From assembly GCA_047921175.1 (NCBI GenBank), contig JBLRWQ010000003.1:4534-68533 (forward strand): a stretch of 64,000 nt of DNA, given 5' to 3'. Of the stretch, positions 1,895 to 64,000 are shown piece after piece (the first letter of the stretch is position 1; the number at the start of each line of letters is the position of its first letter). This DNA comes from Nitriliruptoraceae bacterium (GTDB lineage: Bacteria; Actinomycetota; Nitriliruptoria; Nitriliruptorales; Nitriliruptoraceae). The notes beneath the pieces are model-generated. The model ran no database searches and was not told the DNA's origin. It saw only the letters and a program-made list of their open reading frames with translations. Both the position numbers and the translations under genes were made by a program.

Positions 1895-4800
1895 TCAGCT
1901 CTCCTCGGTCTCGGCTGCGGCGTCGGACACGTCGGTCGCGACCTCGGGTTGGGTCCGCTCCAGCCCGGCCAGCTGCTCGTAGTAGCGCCAGCGCTCGTCC
2001 ACGTCGCTCTGGGCGAGCGCCATGAGCATCTTCGCGCGCTCGGGGTCGGTCCGGGTCAGGGAGGCGAAGCGGCCCTCGGTGGTCAGGAAGTCCTTGACCG
2101 GCTGGGCAGGGGCCTTCGAGTCGAGCTTGAACGGCTGCTCGTGCTCGTCCTCACCCGGGTGGTAGCGGAACAGCGGCCAGTACCCGGTCTTGACCGCGAG
2201 GTCCATCCGGTTCATGGAGTCCTTCATGTCCACGCCGTGCGCGATGCAGGTCGAGTAGGCCAGCAGTAGGGACGGTCCCGGCCAGGCTTCGGCCTCGCGC
2301 ATCGCCTTCAGCGTCTGCATCTCGTTGGCACCGAGCGCGATCTTGGCCACGTACACGTGCCCGTACTGCATCGCCAGCAGGCCGAGGTCCTTCTTCGGTG
2401 AGCCCTTGCCGGCGGTCGCGAACTTCGCCACCGCACCGCGGGTGGTCGCCTTGGAGGCCTGCCCGCCGGTGTTGGAGTACACCTCGGTGTCGAGCACCAG
2501 GACGTTGACGTCCTCCCCGGACGCGAGCACGTGGTCGAGCCCACCGAAGCCGATGTCGTACGCCCAGCCGTCACCACCGACGATCCAGACGTCACGGCGG
2601 ACCAACGAACCGGCGATGACGTCGAGGTGGCGGGCGGCAGCCGCCCGGTCACCGGTCACCCCGTCCAGCCGCCGGCGCAGCTCGACGACCCGCTCACGCT
2701 GGGCCTTGAGCCCGGCCTCGTCGTCCTGGTCGGCGGTCAGCAGCGCGGTCACCAGGTCGTCGCCGACCTCGCTGGCCAGCGTCTGCAGCAGGTGCAGCGC
2801 CAGCTCCCGCGTCTCGTTGATGGCGAGCCGCATGCCGAGCCCGAACTCCGCGTTGTCCTCGAACAACGAGTTGGACCAGGCCGGACCGCGCCCGTCGATG
2901 TTCGTGCCGTACGGGGTCGTCGGGAGGTTGCCGCCGTAGATCGAGGAGCAGCCGGTCGCGTTGGCGATGACGGAGCGGTCGCCGAACAGCTGGCTCATCA
3001 GCTTGATGTACGGGGTCTCCCCGCAGCCGGCGCAGGCCCCGGAGAACTCGAACAGGGGCTGCAGGGTCTGGGAGTGCTTGACCGTGTCGTTGCGCACCGT
3101 CTCGCGGTCCGGGTACGGCAGCTCGAGGAAGGTCTTGAAGCGCTCACGCTCCAGGTCGATCACCGTGCGCTCGTCCGCGCCGTCGGCGGGGTCGAGCACC
3201 GGCGTCATGTTGATCGACTTGTGGCCGACGTCGGTCCGGCTGACCGCGGGGCAGGTCTCCACACAGACGCTGCAGCCGGTGCAGTCGTCCGGGGCGACCT
3301 GGACGGTCAGGCGCATGTCCTTGAGGTCGCGGTCCTTGAACGGCCGCGACAGGAAGCTCTCCGGCACATCGTCGAGGTGCTGCTCGTCGAAGATCTTGAT
3401 CTGGATCGCGGCGTGGGGACAGACGATCGCGCACTTGCCGCAGTTGATGCAGATGTCCGGATCCCAGGTCGGGATCTCCAGCGCGATGGAACGCTTCTCG
3501 TACCGACCGGTGGAGGTCGGGAAGGCTCCGTCCACCGGCAGGGCGGAGACCGGCAGCTGCTCCCCCTCGCCGGCCAGCAGCCGCGCGGTGACGCGCTGCA
3601 CGAAGTCCGGGACGTCGCCCTCCTCGAGCTCGGTCAGCGCGAGCGCCCGCTCGATCGGGTCCGGACGGGTCAGGGTCGAGGTCGCCTCGTCGGGGATCTC
3701 GATCCGGTGGATCGCGTCCTTCGCGGCCTCGATGGCGTCGAGGTTGCGGGTCACGACCTTCTCACCGGCGCGGCCGTAGCTCTTGCGCACGGCATCCTGG
3801 ATCGCGGCGAGCGCCTCGTCCCGGGGCAGCACCCCGCTGATGAGGAAGAACGCCGCCTGCATGATGGTGTTGATGCGCCCACCCAGGCCGACCGACCGCG
3901 CGATGCTGTGGCCGTCGATGGTGTAGACGGCCAGGCCGCGCTCGATCATGATCTGCTGCACGTCCCGCGGCAGGCGGTCCCAGACCGCGTCGGCCTCGAA
4001 GGGGGCGTTGAGCAGGACCGTGCCGCCAGGCTTGATCTCCCGCAGCACCTCGAGCTTCTCGAGCAGCCCGAACTGGTGCACCCCGACGAAGTCGGCCACC
4101 TCGACGAGGTAGGTCGACGGGATCGGATGGGAGGAGACGCGCAGGTGCGCGGCGGTGACCGCGCCGGACTTCTTCGAGTCGTAGACGAAGTAGGCCTGGC
4201 TGTGCTTGCCGAGGCCCTCGGCGAGGATCTTGGTGGTGTTCTTGGCCGCGCCGACGGTGCCGTCGGAGCCGAGGCCGTGGAAGATCGCGGCGAGGTCGTC
4301 GTCCGCACGCGGCAGCTCGAAGGTCCGGTCGACCTCGAGGGAGAGGTGCGTGACATCGTCGTTGATGCCGACGGTGAAGCGGCGCTTGGGGTCGTCCTTG
4401 GACAGTTCGGTGAGGACCGCAGCGACCATCGCCGGGGTGAACTCCTTGCTGGACAGGCCGTAGCGCCCCCCGAGCACCCGCGGCAGCGACTCGAGCACGC
4501 CGGTCGAGTACGCATCCGCGAGGACGGTCAGCACCTCCTGCAGCAGCGGCTCACCGGTCGCGCCGGGCTCCTTGGTGCGGTCGAGCACGGCGATCGAGCG
4601 GACGGTCTCGGGCAGCGCGGCGAGGAAGGCCTCGACGGGGAAGGGCCGGAACAGCCGCACGACCAAAGCACCGACCTTCTCGCCCTGCTCGACGAGGTGG
4701 TCGATGACCTGCTGGGTCGGGCCGACCCCGGAGCCCATCAGCACGACGACGCGCTCGGCGTCCGGGGCACCGTGGTACTCGATCAGGCCGTAGCGCCGGC

Positions 4801-51500: not shown

Positions 51501-54500
51501 GAGGACGTGGAGGTGCACGTTCGCTGGCGTCGCGACACGTGCGGCGTGGAGGTCCCCGGCGGTGAAGGTGGCGCCCGGGACCGTCACGGCGCCGCTGACC
51601 TGCACGATGCGGATGTCGCCCGAAGCGGTGGCCGTCAGCTCGGCGTCGGGGTGCAGGGCGACCCGGAAGCGCTGGCCGTCGGTGCCGAAGCCGTAGATCG
51701 CGTCGCCGGCGAGCAGCTGCACATCGCCGACGGCGGTCACGGCGGCGGGACCCGATCCGAGGTCGACCAGGTTCCCCGTGGCCTCGAGTCGGACCGATCC
51801 ACCGGCGGTGACCCGCGTGACCTCGAGGTCCGCGTCCACCCGCACCGCGACGTCGCCGGGTGCGTCGGTGGTGATCGTCACCGTCTCGGCGGCCGGGACC
51901 GTCTCGATGGCCTCGATCAGCTCGAAGGTGAGACGGCGGAGGTCGGTGGTGTCGACCACCAGGTCGCCATGGTCGAGCAGGTACGTCCCGAGGCGGTCGT
52001 TGAGGTCGATCTTCTGCCATCGGGTCGGGTCGGCGAGGTCCTCGTTGGCGATCGTGACGATCCGGGAGGGGCCGAGGTAGCGGTACAGGCCGTAGACGTC
52101 CGGCAGCTCGACCAGCACGATCGCGCCGGTGGTGACGCTGCTCGAGGGCGCGGACGGCCCCAGCACCGTCGGGATGATCGGCGCCCAGTCCGTCCCGGAG
52201 AAGTCGGCGGCGGCGAGATCGACCGACCCGGAGGTGCCGAGGTAGCGGTAGACGGCGTGCATGCGCCCGATGACGTCCTCGAGCTTCAGCTGCGACAGCA
52301 GCTGCTGCTCCACGTCGCTGAGCCCGTCGAACCCACCCGTGAGCTCCAGCGACTGCAGGCCGGTGGCGCGACCGACGCTGTTGCCGGCCCCGCCGGCGAT
52401 CAGGGTCACGCTCTTCGCCCAGATGTTCGGGACATCGCCCACCGACACCTCGTCCGCGGTCCAGGTGGGCAGCTCGAGGTCCGGGTAGAGGAAACCGACC
52501 ACGCTGACCGACAACGGGTAGCGGAACGTGCTGCCGTCGTAGGTCCCTCCGCCGGTGGGGAACAGCTCGAGGATCAGGTCGAGCTTGTCGGCGGGCTGCT
52601 GCAGGGGCGAGCGTCCGGTGTCGTCGAGGATCGAACCGTCCCGGGTGGCCAGCCGGACCCCACCCGTCAGGGAGACGATGGAGGCGAACTCGCTGCGCTC
52701 CCACGCCCACGGACGCCCGAGCTCGAGGTCACCCGAGACCTCGACGATGTGGACGTCACCGTTCGCGTACACGGTGAGGTTGCCGGCACCGAGGACATCG
52801 GAGTCGATCGGCAGCGGTGCGGCGGCGGTGCCGAGCGCGCCACGGGAGCTGATCAGCGCCACCCGTTCCCCGGCGATCAGGGACTCGCTGGTGCAGGCGG
52901 TGCCACTGCAGGCGACGTGGATGCCGGCCGGGGCGATGAGCCGGACGTCTCCCCCGGTGGTCGTGACCTGGTCCACGAGGAGCCGGTCGGTGTGGACGCT
53001 GGTGGCGACGGCGACGACGTGGATGTCGCCTCCGGCGACCACGGTGAGCGGGCCCTTCGTGGTGCCGACCGTCACGCCCTCGACGTTGAGTCGGACGTCG
53101 CCCGCCGCGTGCACGACCGGGCTGGCGCCGTACACGGCGACGTGCTCGGCGCCGAGGACCGAACCCCCGGTGGAGGTGATCGTGACCGTGCCCTGCGTCG
53201 GTGACTGGATGTTGCCCAGCAGGCTGATCGTCGTCGCGCTGGTGATCTCGATCCTCGGGGCGGTCGGGCCGGGGAGGAACTGCAGGGAGATCGGGTTGTC
53301 CGCCTTGAGGGTGTGGGTGTAGTAGTCGTAGAAGCCCGCGACGTCGGTGATCAGCAGGTGGATGGTCTTCTTGCGCAGCCAGCCGCCGCCGGTGGTCCAC
53401 GTCTCGCTCGTCAGCGTCCGGCTCGTGACCTCGTAGTCGTACCGGATCGAGTAGGTCTCACCGATGCCCTGCACCGGCGTGGCGGAGGTCTCTCCGTAGA
53501 TCGTGCACGTGGTCTTGGAGGGGTCGCAGGTGACGACCTCGGACATCAGCAGTGGACGCTGGTCGGTGAAGAAGATCTCCTGCCACTGGTAGGTCATGTC
53601 CTTGACGAGCAGGTCGTTGAGCCCGCCCCAGCCGGGGATCAGGTTGAAGCTCTTCTTCTCGTACTTCGTCCGCGTGGTCTGGACACCCGCCTGCCCCTCG
53701 ACCCAGACGTAGTACAGGCCCTCCTGGACCGCGTAGGACAGTGAGGTCCCGGCGGGGTACGTGGTGTCCGTCCTGACCGTGTAGTCGATGCCGGGGATGG
53801 TGGTCCCGGAGGTGGGATCATCGGACTGCCCGAGGACGCCGTCGGACACGATCCTTCGGATCCCGCTGGTGCTGGTGACCGTGTACTCATGCTTGGTCAG
53901 CAGCGCGGTGTCGATGATGGTGATACGACCGATCCGGTCCGTCGTGGTGTCGATCCGGTTGACGATCAACTCGTAGCGGCTGTTGTTGATGATCACGACG
54001 TCGGTGAAGCCGTAGGCGACCGCGATGCGGCCGTTGCCGGTCGACAGGATCTGCCCGGCAAGGACGATCTCGCCGCCCGAGGTCACGATGTCCTCCACGA
54101 CGATGGCCTGGCGTTCGGCGTCGAAGTACGCCCGGACCGGCACGCCGCTCCCGAAGGTCACGTACTGCAGCGGCTTCCCGTCCGCCCCCGTCAGCGAGGT
54201 TGTGAAGGTGCGCTGGAAGTCGCTGCCGACCTCGAGCCGTAGCTCCTGCACGCCGCTCTGGATCAGGCCGTTGACGTTGAGGTAGCGGGCGGTGATCGTG
54301 ATGCGGCCGAGTGCGAGGATCCTCGAGTGGTCGGCGGCGAGACCGACGTTCAACCCGGAGAAGAAGGGGTTGACGTAGGGCGCGTTGTAGAGCAGGTCGT
54401 AGAACGCTTGAACCGTCGGAATGTCACTGGTGAGGGGGCCCGTGATGACGGTGTTGTCACCGAGGCTGCGGGCCAGGAGCCGGATCCGGCTGTAGTCGGC

Positions 54501-57500
54501 GAGCTGGCGCGGGTCGGCGTTGGTGTGGAACCAGTCGTCGACGTTGAGGGAGAAGTCACGGGCCGAGAAGATGTCGACGGACGCCCCGCGGATCTCGCCG
54601 TAGACGTTGATGCTGCCGTTCTCGTTTCGGATGACGATCGCGCCCGCCTCGTTGATCACGTCGCCGACGATGAAGAGGTCCTGGTCGATCGACGGGACGA
54701 GGACGTCGGAGCTCCCCGACACGTAGTGCTGGGTGATCGAGATCGTGGAGGTCGGCGGGTCGTCGACGGTCGGGGTGACGGCGCGGTAGTTGAGGTAGAC
54801 GCTGCCGGGCTTGAGGACGGCCGCTTCGCCATCGACGATCACGATTCGCTCGCTGTCGCGGATGATGGCGTCCGCGACGGTCATCGGGAAGGGCGACAGG
54901 TTGCTGATCAGCAGGGTGGCCCCGGCCCGGGTGACGAGCCGGCCGGCGTCGATCGCGCTCTGGAGCGCGGCTCGCTGCGCAGCGGTGTCGTCCGCGACCA
55001 CGTAGACCGAGCCCGGAGCGGCCGTGATCGGCGGTAGCTCGAGGAAGAGCGCATCGAGCTGCTGGTTGACCAACCGGACACCGGGGGTCTTCGACTCGGT
55101 CGTGTGGGTGGCGGTCCCGCCGGTGCCCTCGAGCCTCCAGCGCGTCGTCACGCTGAAGTCCTCCTCGGCGAGGACGATGCCCTCGGCCGCGGCCCCGAGG
55201 AAGAGGTAGCGGTTCGCCGTCGTCGGCGTGGTCCCCGTCGGCCGGAGGTCGTGGACGGTGTCACCCGGGTTCACGGTGATCCGGTAGGTGACCAGGCCGA
55301 GCTCGTCGAGGGTGCGGTCGATGATGTCGAGCTGGACCTGGTAGCGGGCGACCGCGTCCGCGTTGGTGGCGTGGTCGGTCATCCACGCGACCAGCTGCTC
55401 GCGCTGCTCGATCAGGAGCAGGGCCAGGTTGCGGTAGGTGAGCGTCGGCGCAGCCAACTCGACCGGCTTGACGACGTAGAACGCCCCCACGAGCTGCTGC
55501 TGGAGCTGCTGCGTCACGTCGCTGCCGTAGTAGGACCCTGCGGCCTCGACCTGGCTGATGCTCGGCACGGTCCTGCCGTCGACGGTCTGGGTCCCTGCCG
55601 TCAGTCGCACCCAGCGGCTGGTGACCGAGTAGTCCTCCTCGTGCAGGTAGAGGGAGTGTCCGTCCGTGACCGGGCGGTAGGAGTAGTAGCCGCCGACCAC
55701 GCCGCCGCCGTTCGCCCCCGCGACCACCTTGACGACCATCCCCGTCGACACGACGAGCGGGATGTCGTCCGGCTCCAGCCCGACCAACTCGTACGGCACG
55801 TCCGCGGGGACCTGCACCCCCTCCGCAGCGAGTGCGGTTCGGTCGTCCGCGGTCAGCGGCCGGCCGGTGCCGTCCCACAGGTCGTCGTCGGGTCGGATCA
55901 GGACGATGGACGAGCTGTTCAGCCCGGCGATGACCTTCGTGCCCGAACCGATGGTCACCGTGTTCGTGCTGGTGACGCTGCTTCCGTCGGGCACCACCAC
56001 GCCGTAGGGGATCATCGAGAGCGAGAGCACCCCGCCGTCGGTGCCGGCGCGTTCGGTGCCGCCGAGCCCCTCCACCGCGAGGAGGTCGATGTCCTGCAGG
56101 GCACGGAGCTGGGTGCTGCCCGCGAGCGTGATCGTGTTGTGCTCGGTGATGTCCGCGAGCACGACCGGGATGGCGATGCTCGGGTACATCGACACGGCGA
56201 GGATCTGGACGTCCGCGAAGGTGTAGAACAGGTTCGGGACGCCGCTGCTCCCGCGCCCGGCGTAGAGCTTGAGGTCCTGGCCGGTGATGGCGCTGTCGGT
56301 GACCGTGATCTGCTGCGTGACGTCGGTGTCGGTGCTGGCCAGGCCGCTCGCGCCGCCGGCGAGCACGCTGATGATCAGCAGGTTCGCGGAGGCGACGACC
56401 AACGAGTCCGCCCGGGTCGCCAGGACGACGTCGCCGGTGCGGTTCTCGAGGACAGCGCCGGTGACGGCGATATCGGCGAGCGTCTCGGTGTCGATGATGG
56501 AGTTGACCGCGGTGACCTGGAAGCCGGCGACGCTCTCCACGGCGGCCTTGTCGAAGGCGGTGACGTCGGTGGCAGCGTCGATCCGCAGGCTGCCCCGGTC
56601 GAGGTTCGTGCCGTCCGTGACGATGCTGGCGCCGGTGCCGATGGTGACCGTGGCCTGGAACGGGTGCGTGTCCGTCCCGACCTCGGTCAGGCTCACCATC
56701 ACGGTGAGCGATCCCGCACTCGCGGAGCCGGAGTGCAGGGTCGGTGCGTCGCCGTAGCCGTCCTTCACCAGTCGGTTCACGGCTCCGATCGTGATCACGG
56801 TCGCGACGACGTCCACGGCCCCGATCAGGACATCGGCACGGCTGGTGAGGGTGTGGGTGATCAGGGCACCGGTACCGGCGGCGAGGGCGAGCGTGTAGCT
56901 GTCAGCCTTGCCGTCGATGTTCTGATCGAGCGCGGCGCCGATCGTCAGCGTGCGGGCCAGGATCTCGACGCCGTCACCGAGGCGGACGAGCGCCGTGTTC
57001 GTGGTGGTGGTCGTGCTGACCGCGCCGGTCACCGAGAGACCACCGATCGAGCCGGCGATCGTCTCCGCGCGAAGAAGGTCCGTGCTCGTCGCCTGGACGA
57101 CGACGGTGTCGGCGATCACGGTCGCGCCGCCCGTCAGCTGTGCCAGGACCTCCTCGACGGCCCGGCCCCGCCCGAGGTTCACCGTGGCGCTGAAGCCGCC
57201 GAACGCCGCCAGCCCCGCCGCGCCGCCGTTCGCACTGACCCGGCCCTCGTTCACGGCGGTGGCGATCACCCGGACGGCGCCGGTCGCGGCGAACACGGTC
57301 GCCGCGTGGATCGTCGCGGAGGCGGTGGTCAGGAGGTTCGCGATGCCCACGTTGAGCGTGCCCGCGATCAGACCGCCGGAGAGCCCGACGACCTCGAGGC
57401 CGGTGATCCGGGCCACGGACGTGGCGAGGACGTCGACCGCGTTCGCGACCACGGCCGCCTGGGTGATCCTCGCGCTGATCTCGCTCGAGATCGTCGAGAC

Positions 57501-60500
57501 GACCTCCGTGGCGGAGCCGGCGATCCCGATCGGTGCGACGGCGAGGGCGGCGGCGAGCGCAGCGGTGTCGACCTCGCTCGTGCCGGTGGCCCGGACCGCC
57601 AACTGGCCGCCGGCCAGGACCGCGATCGGTCCCTCGACCACCGCGCTGACGAGGTCGTCCACGAGGGTGGTGATCGCGATACCCGCACCGGCGAGGGAGA
57701 AGCCGACGCCGGCGGCGAGCGATGCCGCGACACCGGCCGCGCCGTCGAGGATCGAGGTGGACGTCGCCGCGACGGTGAGGTTCCCGCCCGCGACCGCCAC
57801 CTGCGGTGTGGTGGCCGTGAGGCGCGCTTGCACATCGTTGGCGATCAGGGTGTCGACCACCGAGATCCCGACCGACACGGCCCCGAGGGAGCCGCTGATC
57901 GCCAGTCCGACCGCCTTCGCTGCGCCCACCTCGGTGCCGCCGACCGCGAGCACCGCGAGGTGGTGGCCGGCCAGGACGCTGCTGTCCTCGATCGCCGCGA
58001 GGACCCGGGTGCTGGCGACGCTGGTCGCCTCCGCGCCGGCGCTCGCGACCGCAGCGCCGATGCCGATGGCGATCGCGACCGAGCCGGCGTAGGAATCGGT
58101 GGTGATCCGGTCGGTGGCGCTGGCCGTCACCCGCAGGTCACGGGTGGCCCAGACCTGCGAGCCCTCGATCACGGCGAGCACGCGGTTGGTGCGGGGTCCC
58201 TCGGCCAGCGTGTCGGGGCCGAGCAGGTTGCGGGCGATCGAGACACCGACCGAGCCCGCCACCGCGACGAACCCGCCGGCGATGCTGCCCGCGGCCGCGC
58301 CGGCGACCGCCGACAGGGTGCTGGCGCTCGTGGCCTCGACGATGACGTCGTGGAGCGTGGTCAGCCCGGTCCCCTGCCAGTTCGCGTTGTTCGGGTAGTC
58401 CTGAGCCAGGTCGCTGAGGTCGATGGGGTCCTCCCCCGCGGCGATGTCGCGGTCGTCGTCCTCGCCGACGTAGCGCCAGACGGTGCCGTCGGGGCGCTCC
58501 ACGAGGTCGTTGGTGTGGAGGCTCGCGACCAGCTGGACGGCGGGCCCGTACATGATCGGAACGTCGCCAGCGGTGACCTCGCTGTCGACGATCGTCGCCA
58601 GGACCTGGTTGGCGATCAGGTTGGTGGCGTCCGCCCCGGCACCGCTCAGCGCGATACCGACGAAGGAGCCGGCGGCCGACAGTGACGAGGCGACGGCGCC
58701 TGCTGCGATGCCGGCGGTCTCGTCGGCGAGCACCTGGACGCTGCCGGCGCTCGCGGTGACGTCGGCATCGCGGATCTCGGCCGTGACGACGTTCGTGATC
58801 TGGTTGTAGGCGAGTGCGACCCCGATCGACACGCTGACCGCGGCGAGACCCGAGAACGCGGCGGCGACGGACGCAGCGCCGGCGATCGCGTTGATCGTGG
58901 AGCTGTCCTCCGCGCTGACCGTGATGCCCCGCAGCGCGCCGATCGCGGTGCTCGCCGAGCCGACGATGCTGGCGGTGACCTCGGCGGCGATCCGGTTGGT
59001 GGTCTCCACACCGGCGCCGGAGCCGCCGACCGCGACCGTCCCGGATCCGGCGAGCGCGACCGAGCCGGCCAGGACCACGGAGGAGATCCGTCGGTTGGCG
59101 TCGGCGACGACGTCGATGCGTCCGTGCCCGGTGACGACGGTCCGCGTGAGGGCCGCGCGCGTGATCGCCGCGTTCGGTTCCAGGGCGACCTGCTCCCACG
59201 ACGTCGGGTCGCTGTAGCTCAGGGCGGCCAGGTCGAGCCTCGCGCCGTCCTCGCCGGTCAACGCGGTGGTGCCGAGGTACCGGTAGACCTCGCCGCCCCG
59301 TGCGCCGCCGACCACGAGCACCGTGTCGCCGGACTCGATCTGGTACGGCATCTCGTTCTCGCCGAGATCGGTGCGGTAGGTCGGTGTCGCCTCGCCCGGC
59401 TCCCACCCGATGTAGTTGCGGGCGACCGCGGCGCCGACGGACGCGCCCACACCGACCACGCCACCGACGGCGACGGAGCCGGAAGCGGCCGCGACGATCG
59501 CGTCGATGCTCGCGGTGTCGCTCGCGCGGACCAGCAGGTCGCCGGTGACGGTGACGATCGCGTCGACGACCTCGGCGACGGTCGACGTGGTGATCACGTT
59601 GATGGCACGGGCGCCGGCGCCACTCAGCCCGACCGCGACGGTCCCCGCGAACGAGATCGCCGCGGACGCGGCCGCGGACACGGCCCGGATCGCCGCGTCA
59701 CCGGACGCCTCGACGGACAGGGGGCCACCCAGGGAGTCGACGGTGGCACCGTCGATCGCCGCACGCACGACGGTGCGGATGGTGTTCTCGGCCAGGGAGA
59801 CGCCGATCGAGAGCGCGACCCCGGCCGTGCCGCCGAACGCTCCGGCGATCGATGCCGCCGCGGCGACCGCGTTGATCCTCGAGGTGTCCTCGGCCGTCAG
59901 GTGCACGCCGGCGGCGGTGATCGGACCGTTGCTCGTGGCGTCGGTGGCCTCGATGACGGCCTCGACCAGGGTCCCGATGCGGTTGCGGACGTCCACGCCG
60001 GAGCCGGCGAGGCCGATGCCTGCGGTGCCACCACCGCCGATCGCGACCGAGCCCGCGACCACGACGGCGCTGATGGTCTGCGACGAGGTGGCGATCAGCC
60101 GGACCTCCCCGACCGCGGTGACGGTGGACCCGGCGATCCTGGCCGAGACCCAGGCGGTCGGGACGCCGTCGGTGAACCCCAGGTCGTTGCGGGCGATCGC
60201 GACGCCGATGGACGCGCCGACCCCGGCGGTCCCACCGACGCCGATCGACAGCGACGCGGCCACGATGGTCGCGGTGAGCCGCGACTCGTTGGCGGCGGTC
60301 AGCTCCACGTCGGCGGCGCTGTCCACGGTGCTGTCGGTGACGTGCGCGTCGACCCGGGTGTCGTCACGGTTCAGCGCGACCGCGCCGGCGCCGGCGACCG
60401 ACACGCCGGCGGTGCCACCGATCCCGGCAGCGAGCGACGCCGCGGCTGCAACCACCTGGATCGTGGGAGCGGCGACCGACAGCTGTCCGCCGTCGAGGAG

Positions 60501-63500
60501 GGTCAGCAGATAGGTCCGACCGTCGACGTCGGTGAGCTGCCAGGCCTGCCCCGGCACCAGCGTGAGCAGCGTGACCCGGAAGTCCTCGCCGTCCGTGGTG
60601 TTGAGGATCAGACCCTCGTCCTCGAGCAGCCCGACCAGCTCCTGCTGAACCGCCCGTGCCGCCGCCGGCGAGAGGGCGGTCAGCTCCCACTGGCTGGTGC
60701 TGGCGTAGTCCATCGTGGCGAGGTTCGGGGTCGCGACGTCCACCCCGAGGTAGCGGTAGGTGTTGCCGGCGTACATGCCCGAGACCACGAGGACGGTGTG
60801 TCCTGCCTGCAGCACCGTGACACCGATGGCGTCGGAGCGGTAGGTGGCGGTGGCCGCGGGTTCGTGGGTGTCGCCGTCGTCCGCGCCCGGGGATGCGGCG
60901 ACGTCGCTCTGGGCGAGATCGAGCTCCATCGGGGTGAGGTCCCCGAGGTCGACCGTGAACAGCGACGTCCCGGCGGCCAGCGCGGTGACGGTCACGTCGC
61001 CGGTCTCCGTGGTGACGGCGCTGTCACTGATGGAGGCCTCGACGTCCCGGTCGAGTCGGTTGACGGCGATCGAGATGCCGACGGCGACGGAGACGCCCGC
61101 CGTGCCACCCATCGATGCGGCCACGGAGGCGGCGGCCACGACCGCCCGGATGCTCGAAGCGTCGGTCGCGGTGACGGTGACCGCGGCTGCCGTGACGTCG
61201 GATCCCTCGACCGCGGCGCGGATGTCCCCACCGATCCGGTTCTCCGCGTGCGCGCCAGCCCCGCTGACGGCGACGCCGGCCTTCGTTCCGCCGGACAGCG
61301 CCGCGGCGACGGCGAGGACGGTGGCGTCGATCGACCGGGCCGCCGACGTGGTCACGGTGAGGTCACCGGAGGAGACGATCGTGGCGCCGTCCACCACCGC
61401 TACGGTCCCACCGACGACCGGCGTGAGGTTGGTGAGCTGCCACTTCGTCGGGTCGGCGAACTCCTCGCTGGTGAGGTCCCAGGTGGCCGTCAGGGGGGCC
61501 CCGACGTACCGGTAGACGGTGCCGCCGACGTTGACGGTCTCCCCGGTCCCGAGGACCTGCGGGAAGCTGTCGAGCTGGTGGGTGGCATCCTCTGGTTCCA
61601 CGTCGTCGGCGAGCTCCCAGGCGTCATCCTCCGCGTGGTCGAAGGCGCCGAGGTCGACCGTCGCGTGGGCGTCCAACGGTCCGACCCAGACGTAGGTGTC
61701 ACCCGAACGCGGCCCGTGGACGACCCGGACGGTCTCATCGGGTTGGAGGACGGCCACGGTCCCGTCGTCGCTGTGGTGATCGGCGACGTCCGGGCCGTAG
61801 GGGTCCCAGCCGATGATGTTCTGCGCGACCGACACACCGAGGGCGACGCCCACGCCGACGTCCCCGCCGGAGAAGGCGAACGAAGCGGCGAAGGCCAGGA
61901 TCGTCGCGGTGATGCTGGCGGTGCTGTCCGCCGTGACGGTGACGGCGCCGACCGGCTCGTCCTCGGTCCCCACGGCGGTGTTCGCCAGGGAGGCGTGGGT
62001 CGTGCTGAGGATCACGTTCCGTGCCATCGCCCCGCCGCCGGAGACGGAGACCGCCGGGCTTCCGCCCGCCATGGACACCGACACCGCGACCGCGATCGCC
62101 TGGACCGTGATGGAGGAGTCATCGGTGGCGGTGACGGTGACGGGCGCGCCGTCCGTCATGACCGAGGTGGGACCGTCGACCCTCGCCGTCACCTGGTTGG
62201 CGATCCGGTTGAGCCCCAGCGAGAAGCCGACCGAGACCGAGACCGCCCGGTCGCCGCCCAGGCTGGCGGTCACGGCGGCGCCGTTGGTCTGGGCATCGAT
62301 GCTCGAGCCGTCCGAGGCAGCGACCAGGATGTCCCCACCGACGGTGGTGATCGCACCTGCGCCGTCGATCGAGGCCGTGACGTGGACGGCGATCGAGTTG
62401 TCGGCCCAGATCCCGCCGACGCCGACGGTCGTGGCGTTCCCGCTGGTCGCGGCGACCGCCACCGAGACAGCCTCCACGATGGCGTCGATGCTGGCCGTCG
62501 AGCCAGCGGTGACGCTGATGTCGCCTGCGGCGGTGAGGCTGGAGCCGCTGGAGGTAGCGGTGACGTCGATCGGGTCCTGGCCGGTGTACTCGTCCCAGCC
62601 GATCAGGTTGCGGGCGATGGAGGCGCCGATCGCGACCGCCGTGGTCGTCTCGTTCCCGACCGCGATCGCGACGCTGATGGCCCGGATGAGCGCGTCGATC
62701 GCCGCCGTGTGCTCGGCCTCGACGCTGATGGCGCCCTGCCCGGCGTCGGTGCCGTCGGCGGTCACGGTGCTGCCCGTGACGAGCGCCTCGGTGCTGCCGG
62801 CGATGACGTTGACCGCGGTCGCGCCGCCACCGGAGAACGCCATGCTGTCCTTGCTCGCGCCCACCGAGAACCCGATGGCGGACGCGGTCGCCGTGGCGTC
62901 GATCGCGGCGGCCTGCGTCGCGGACACGGTGACGGAGCCGGCCTCCGCGTGAGCGGAGGAGGCGGTGACCTCAGCGAGGACGTCAGCGTGGATCTCGTTC
63001 CGGGAGATGGAGAGGCCGACGGCGATGGACCTCGACCCCTCGGCGCTGATAGTGACGGCCAGCACCGGCGAGTCGACGAAGGAGGTGATGGAGGTCGCGT
63101 CGCTGGCGACGACCTCGATGTCGCCGGCTCGCACGGCGGAGGAGTCGCGGATCGCGGCGGTCACGTCGGTCGCGATCTTGTTCATCGCGAGCACGGCGCC
63201 GACCGAGATCGCCTGCCTGTCGCTCGTTCCGGACGACACCAGCGTGGTGACCGCGTTCGCGACGGACGCGTCGATCGTCGCGGTCGACAGCGCGCGGACG
63301 GTGACCGCTCCTGCGACGTCCACGGTCGAGCGTTCGATGACGGCGGAGGTCCGCATCGCGTCGGGGTCGCCGATCAGCGAGCCGAGCAGCGCGTCGACGA
63401 GGTTGAACAGCAGGTTCTGGGACTCCCAGCCGATCGTGTTGAACGCCACGACCCCACCGACGGAGACGCCCTGCGACGAGGTCGTCGCGTTCGCGCTGGC

Positions 63501-64000: not shown

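Follow-up and report, generated by a model that had tools for sequence, protein, structure and literature searches.

A giant open reading frame (ORF) on the minus strand of a 64,000-nucleotide stretch of a Nitriliruptoraceae genome (assembly GCA_047921175.1, C3:4534–68533; referred to below as the window) contains a small module that recurs along the encoded protein and is not covered by any curated Pfam, NCBIfam, or PHROG family. Structure prediction and database searches point to an ancient and widespread all-beta domain of ~60 residues with a confidently predicted fold. We consider it probable that the module is a real, autonomous, and uncurated domain family displayed on a filament. The finding is a solid family definition, not a new biological principle or mechanism. 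Few bacterial genes are as poorly annotated as those for giant secreted filament proteins (5,000 to >30,000 residues), and a defined 60-residue domain with a confident model and >1,100 member clusters would give a handle for annotating and segmenting them. The module would mark where the rigid backbone is interrupted and offer a small expressible unit for testing what such filaments bind.

The window part of the ORF spans positions 39441–63998 (8,185 codons; its translation is called P0001) and is open at its 5' end at the window edge. The frame runs on upstream (L013:2–9181, minus strand) and comprises 11,282 open codons in full, from which the most upstream start gives ~11,250 residues; numbering on this full frame is given as orf residues. 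The window part scores 280.6 bits, over 20 stretches, against NCBIfam model NF012206 (LktA_tand_53, "tandem repeat-containing filamentous protein"), for which the cut-off is 50. These repeats are located in the N-terminal half, correspond to what the initial annotation of the sequence had called a solenoid, and are also present upstream of the window (NCBIfam). The C-terminal 3,985 residues contain RTX nonapeptides and five Calx-beta domains (Pfam). Pfam produced zero matches in the 4,200 N-terminal window residues, which is the stretch covering the module copies.

The initial annotation had described at least ten copies of a motif, and all ten peptides that it listed are exact matches, at the positions it gave, in the translation of this single ORF (P0001 residues 2–39, 766–796, 826–855, 1078–1106, 1569–1604, 1838–1875, 2769–2799, 2928–2956, 3914–3941, and 3970–3997). 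A module hidden Markov model (HMM) was built from copies extended upstream to take in a "GDTVxV" strand and was iterated on the full 11,282-codon frame. The protein has 19–20 module copies between orf residues 1156 and 7098, with E values of 1e-9 to 1e-22 (22–65 bits) for accepted copies. Ten are inside the window, where the iterated HMM found no others, and nine or ten more are upstream in the same protein. The recurrent pattern is real and far beyond chance, because no more than 6.6 bits were reached by the reversed sequence or by any of 20 versions that had been shuffled locally with their composition kept. The window copies are listed below by window position.

63870–64000, minus strand: module copy, orf residues 3076–3140; N-terminal 21 residues are past the window edge
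61596–61784, minus strand: module copy, P0001 739–801; first of a tandem pair, immediately following the backbone turn "AQNIIGW"
61419–61586, minus strand: module copy, P0001 805–860; second of the tandem pair
60666–60848, minus strand: module copy, P0001 1051–1111; the copy modelled alone
59175–59372, minus strand: module copy, P0001 1543–1608; after an "ARNYIGW" turn, the copy modelled in context (P0001 1423–1733)
58356–58538, minus strand: module copy, P0001 1821–1881; long variable loop past the YRYVG motif
55590–55778, minus strand: module copy, P0001 2741–2803; in the non-LktA middle region, position kept in a second giant protein of this genome and in proteins of other organisms
55119–55289, minus strand: module copy, P0001 2904–2960; in the non-LktA middle region
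52164–52286, minus strand: module copy, P0001 3905–3945; short form in which no N-terminal strand is clear, leading a tandem pair
51996–52163, minus strand: module copy, P0001 3946–4001; second of the tandem pair, starting 4 bases outside the interval first annotated

The module consists, in order, of strand 1 ("Y-D-Y/F-T-S"), strand 2 ("G-D-x-V-x-V"), a Gly-rich turn that varies in length, strand 3 ("G-x-V-Y-R-Y-L-G"), a loop that likewise varies in length, a conserved acidic-aromatic loop ("V-D-L-x3-D/N-Y-x-D/N"), and strand 4 ("W-x-x-V"). The motif noticed at first, thought to be 30–45 aa long, is the core of this unit, which is about twice as long at 55–65 aa. A "G(D/H)TVxVV" strand had been described as usually preceding each copy; the strand is present but belongs to the unit (G 89%, V 94%), together with a further strand N-terminal to it. 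The consensus from 357 full-length instances in database proteins is y-D-Y/F-T-S-x-S-G-x-q-t-L-x-f-G-D-R-V-R-V-a-d-g-G-G-x-A-G-x-V-Y-R-Y-l-G-(variable loop)-V-D-L-g-t-Q-D-Y-s-D-t-d-l-W-k-e-V. In the same set, conservation is 100% for the W, 96% for the L of "DL", 95% for the G of "YxYxG", and 94% for the V of "GDxV". The tyrosines of "YxY" are conserved at 89% and 78%, a third Tyr at 79%, and three D/N positions at 82%–90%. Most of the length variation falls at two sites, in the turn that joins "GDxVxV" to "GxVYxY" and in the loop that follows "YxYxG".

A short form of 33–36 residues lacks the first two strands, has the motif "aGxVYxYxG...DL...DYxD...WxxV", and occurs in head-to-tail arrays (e.g., P0114 and P0105). 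Whole database proteins (P0014 and P0114) are built of arrays of 5–15 units, and such arrays faintly recall the blade motif of tectonins. Three head-to-tail units, the last two of the short form, were also observed just upstream of the window (L013:1103–1465, minus strand; orf residues 2609–2729).

AlphaFold2 modelled one copy alone (88-sequence alignment) as a compact all-beta domain with a mean predicted local distance difference test score (pLDDT) of 96.0 and a predicted template modelling score (pTM) of 0.80, with strands at residues 2–4, 18–20, 30–33, and 54–58. Another copy, modelled inside 311 residues of its context (32-sequence alignment; pLDDT 89.9, pTM 0.78), has strands at equivalent positions; the two modelled copies therefore share one predicted fold. 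This agrees with the initial suggestion of a small beta module and speaks against the outcome that was named there as a refutation, the lack of a consistent fold across copies. The linkers that flank the module in context have lower confidence (80 and 73).

Placement on the backbone and distribution

LktA-type repeats were mapped with a self-derived repeat HMM that was iterated manually. In the window they are arranged as follows.

57540–63821, minus strand: LktA-type 53-residue backbone repeats, in blocks 60942–63821, 58554–60401, 58074–58385, and 57540–57881; modules are at or inside the breaks

Over the full frame, the blocks span orf residues 777–5250, and most of the breaks between them hold one or more modules. 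The initial annotation had placed the modules as inserts between solenoid repeats. This applies to six of the ten window copies, which are at or inside LktA-type blocks, but four are in a non-LktA region (55590–55778, 55119–55289, 52164–52286, and 51996–52163), and modules also form tandem arrays. The copies in the non-LktA region (55.1–55.8 and 52.0–52.3 kb) keep their positions in the paralogue as well as in proteins from other organisms. A 311-residue segment of backbone, module, and backbone (P0001 1423–1733; window 58800–59732, minus strand) has 64 near-full-length counterparts elsewhere. In all 47 end-to-end counterparts of similar length, the module is at the same spot, directly after an "A-R-N-x-I-G-W" motif. 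The module is inserted at a fixed turn of the LktA-type repeats, and it recurs in tandem arrangements and on scaffolds of other kinds. It is not itself a backbone repeat: NF012206 does not cover it, the repeat blocks break at most module positions, modules form tandem arrays, and 15 of the 150 best database matches carry it without an LktA-type repeat (135 have both).

The backbone repeats are real (NF012206) but were modelled as strands of 15–24 residues in long hairpins rather than as the short rungs of a classical solenoid. No PDB structure matches the predicted LktA-type backbone. A 2026 preprint (bioRxiv 10.64898/2026.03.19.712371) describes the LktA-like repeats of Chlorobium chlorochromatii Cag_665 as a "laminated beta-sheet", and the predicted long-strand sheet agrees with this description. 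When shifted by 687 residues, the LktA-type region (orf residues 760–5260; window 57510–64000 and L013) resembles itself at a higher order (identity 10.9% versus an average of 8.7%, z ~4.4), and many relatives carry module-bearing segments at intervals of 680–790 residues. This suggests a super-repeat of ~690 residues, equal to 13 backbone repeats together with modules.

A profile built from 17 copies in the window protein was run against 1.84 billion representative proteins. The search, of the kind the initial annotation had called for, matched 1,119 clusters at E ≤ 1e-3, of which 488 reached E ≤ 1e-10 and 106 reached E ≤ 1e-30. Matched proteins have up to 21 module stretches and many are 2,000–7,800 residues long. 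Approximately 40% of successive modules are directly in tandem in the top 150 matches. Thirty matches were looked up, and about a third of them had a source name, mostly "hypothetical" or generic. Named carriers include Magnetococcales, Litorivicinus, Brooklawnia, Pirellulaceae, Gamma- and Betaproteobacteria, Methylobacterium aquaticum (WP_048467334.1), and Chloroflexota, with proteins mostly labelled "hypothetical", "beta strand repeat-containing", or "LEPR-XLL domain-containing". By the source names among these 30 matches, the module spans at least four bacterial phyla (Pseudomonadota, Planctomycetota, Chloroflexota, and Actinomycetota). M. aquaticum is a cultured carrier, which makes experiments feasible.

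Each copy has 44%–64% identity to a copy in a protein of another organism, compared to 35%–47% to its sister copies. The copies are therefore old and individually maintained and not recent products of slippage. Two narrower searches found nothing further: a single 311-aa segment searched against genome contigs had no relative, and a word-seeded search with P0001 1530–1620, a method ill-suited to a 60-aa module inside giant proteins, gave 78 candidates with none at E ≤ 1e-3.

Possible role of the module on the filament

As an autonomous displayed domain, the module would form a small knob that stands out from the giant secreted filament. Protrusion is suggested because the module folds alone in the model, inserts at a turn, and has soft linkers. 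Its autonomy is suggested by the tandem and short-form arrays, by the proteins without LktA-type repeats (15 of 150), and by the four window copies outside the LktA-type blocks. The knob may serve as a repeated, low-affinity binding unit for a glycan or surface ligand, possibly Ca2+-stabilised, that would make the filament multivalent. A binding role could follow from the constant framework with two variable loops, from reuse along an extracellular filament, and from the weak fold resemblance to tail-fibre and CBM-type modules; taken alone, this role seems somewhat unlikely. The rest of the protein is rich in repeats that bind Ca2+, and the three conserved D/N positions of the module may likewise do so. 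An extension of this idea, which we regard as unlikely, is that the module founds an unrecognised lectin-like family, with the long form as a glycan- or surface-binding knob at regular intervals and the short-form arrays as a distinct and possibly tectonin- or propeller-like architecture. If this is true, filaments in at least four bacterial phyla would recognise partner cells or matrices in a multivalent and position-specific manner.

Some points weigh against an autonomous displayed domain with a binding role. The conserved aromatics may form the core of a very small domain instead of a binding face. Mean-field direct coupling analysis (DCA) of 623 module sequences recovered the hairpin of strands 2 and 3 (pairs 19–32, 20–29/30, and 21–30), and covariation supports this hairpin only, with the remaining signal consisting mostly of gap and terminus artefacts. 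With Foldseek, neither PDB nor BFVD yielded a match at E ≤ 1e-3, and every structural match is sub-significant. An uncurated or structural classification of the module may already exist outside the databases covered (Pfam, NCBIfam, PHROGs, PDB, and BFVD). DCA was not used as evidence for adjacency of the N and C termini or for an acidic cluster, where gap and terminus artefacts interfere.

The main rival is that the module is purely architectural, a cap, joint, or hinge between rigid LktA-type sheet blocks that has no ligand of its own, may be Ca2+-stabilised, and would set the flexibility of the filament or prevent edge-to-edge aggregation. Nearly every break between the LktA-type blocks holds a module, the insertion point is fixed in 47 of 47 homologous segments, and the spacing follows the ~690-aa super-repeat both here and in relatives; these observations favour a joint. 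The three conserved D/N positions also occur in a protein that carries RTX and Calx-beta calcium-binding regions. However, the copies outside the LktA-type blocks and the tandem arrays of up to 15 modules without a backbone (P0014) have no blocks to join. The pTM of the 311-aa segment (0.78) suggests that the flanks keep a defined mutual orientation, unlike a free hinge, and two loops of strongly varying length on a constant framework are more typical of a recognition scaffold. We judge a purely architectural role to be unlikely.

Comparison with described families and folds

The initial annotation could attach no named family to the module, and database comparisons agree. Pfam searches with six window copies returned nothing relevant even at E ≤ 10 (the lone match was to Sp38 at chance level, E 0.086), and searches with ten module-rich database proteins returned no dedicated family. 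Matches of the latter to Kri1_C, DNAX_lid, L9_N, and ProQ_C were rejected as noise (0 passing stretches). Matches among 88 single modules at E ≤ 1 were scattered (KOW in 3, KOW4_SPT5 in 3, SH3_9 in one, and SH3_2 in one). NCBIfam names the backbone repeat and not the module, and scattered PHROGs matches to families of unknown function (E 0.0015–0.0098) had 0 individually passing stretches, so that a PHROG relationship was rejected.

It is improbable that the module is a divergent member of a described family, the candidates being a KOW/SH3-like barrel, a CBM5/12 chitin-binding module, and a tectonin beta-propeller blade. The sole consistent, if weak, likeness is to SH3-like and KOW small barrels (PF00467, PF23291, CAP-Gly, and NdhS), in keeping with the SH3-like insert proposed at first. 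A profile search of PDB sequences matched SH3-like barrels only (CAP-Gly, NdhS, and L24; E 0.2–3), and the hairpin "G-D-x-V-x-V, Gly-rich turn, G-x-V-Y-x-Y-x-G" resembles that of KOW. Whole-protein sums for KOW4_SPT5 in two multi-copy proteins (31.6 and 32 bits) exceed the 27-bit cut-off, but with 0 individually passing stretches. No single module passes a Pfam model; the best E values among the 88 modules are 0.0043 for KOW (PF00467) and 0.011 for KOW4_SPT5 (PF23291), and neither was matched in the six window copies. Ribosomal and Spt5 KOW hairpins superpose over 21–24 residues (~22) with a root-mean-square deviation of ~1 Å (Foldseek E 1.7–4), which is one hairpin out of 60 residues. The C-terminal half of the module, with the "VDLxxxDYxDxxxW" loop and the last strand, has no counterpart in KOW or SH3. 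The setting of the module is extracellular and structural, whereas that of KOW is the ribosome or nucleic-acid binding.

CBM5/12 (ChtBD3) domains and phage tail-fibre knobs resemble the module as small (45–60 aa), aromatic-rich, all-beta accessory modules on elongated extracellular or virion proteins. They gave the best overall fold scores found. Non-significant PDB neighbours include a contractile-injection-system baseplate chain, a GH18 chitinase (template modelling [TM] score 0.49), and many 22-residue KOW hairpins, and those in BFVD are phage tail or tail-fibre proteins and entries annotated as "CBM family 5/12" or "ChiA1-BD" (TM 0.5–0.62, probability up to 0.95). A cyanophage tail fibre was a further weak neighbour, and the 8KEC region (cyanophage A-1(L) tail, a weak match) could not be assigned to a named domain. 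For a CBM_5_12-like fold, query-normalised TM scores are 0.49–0.62 with probability ≤0.95, but E values are 0.08–0.9 and the annotation is indirect. Across CBM5/12 and the phage knobs, Foldseek E values are all >0.07, there is no sequence or profile relationship, and the order of motifs differs. PF02839 had zero matches in this genome in a run that found Streptomyces-like controls, and hhalign of the 88-sequence profile to ten bona fide CBM5/12 domains gave a probability of 1.3% over 7 aligned columns. CBM5/12 was rejected as an assignment.

The tectonin comparison rests on Laccaria bicolor Tectonin 2 (5FSB), which shares an "a-G-x-I-Y-R-Y-t-G-d" hairpin followed by a Trp, occurrence in tandem, and a unit of ~37 aa similar to the short form. 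A deeper profile reached Tectonin 2 in PDB at E 3.3e-4, a value that is the sum of four or five "aGxIYRYtGdd" motif matches. These span 10–17 residues and are individually insignificant (independent E values of 6.7–53 in Tectonin 2, and 6.7 to 1e3 over tectonin/TECPR matches), and no tectonin model appeared in the Pfam scans. The distance from Tyr to Trp is 11 residues in a tectonin blade compared to 23 in the module, so the two are not colinear, and the model of the long form shows one compact domain instead of a propeller blade. LktA-type tandem-53 proteins (NF012206; the Fusobacterium necrophorum leukotoxin family and Cag_665) share the host scaffold repeat, but NF012206 models the 53-residue repeat only, and the available part of bioRxiv 10.64898/2026.03.19.712371 does not mention the module.

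A compositional or repeat-register artefact of a Gly/Ala/Val/Asp-rich ORF with 70% G+C, in which the module would be a variant backbone rung, is scarcely credible: the surrounding sequence is strongly biased and repetitive and the motif was first picked out by eye, but composition-keeping shuffles fall far short of the real copies (6.6 versus up to 65 bits), an invariant Trp and conserved Tyr are atypical of a backbone repeat, >1,000 database proteins share the module, some of them without the backbone repeat, and the module modelled alone has a pLDDT of 96.

Paralogue and genomic context

A second giant paralogue is present in the same 3.26-Mb genome, on contig C2 (plus strand, frame 1), with an open frame of 10,017 codons. 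It has nine module copies, with matches at C2:30476–37312. The residue numbers of four of these (5834, 5998, 6997, and 7053) almost coincide with those of copies in the window protein. Together, the two genes make up ~2% of the genome.

The module profile was searched against 300 sampled genomes of the same phylum, including 12 of the same family, and no other genome among them carries the module. The G+C content of the giant gene (window 39441–64000) is 68%–72%, ~5% lower than the 75%–77% of its housekeeping neighbours (window 8001–32000). The giant gene looks sporadically distributed, because this is the only genome of the 300 with the module and its G+C is below that of its neighbours, and the same two observations suggest horizontal acquisition. 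Upstream neighbours code for an MFS transporter, a PEBP, an AsnC regulator, an FAD oxidase, LepA, and a glutamate dehydrogenase; no dedicated secretion system is among them, and they provide no functional context.

Similar metzincin-like segments were observed near both ends of the giant protein. The N-terminal segment, DLLTVLRHELGHVLGYEH, is at residues 205–243 of L013:2–9181 (minus strand) and has a weak match to Peptidase_M10 (E 0.0014), and the C-terminal segment, DLWTVLLHEIGHALGYGH, is at ~39.7–40.1 kb of the window. Very long ORFs (1,782, 1,625, 1,193, 920, and 918 aa) also occur antisense to the giant gene on the plus strand (window 39759–63998). These are best read as stop-codon-poor shadows of DNA with 70% G+C, because every family match falls in the minus-strand frame.

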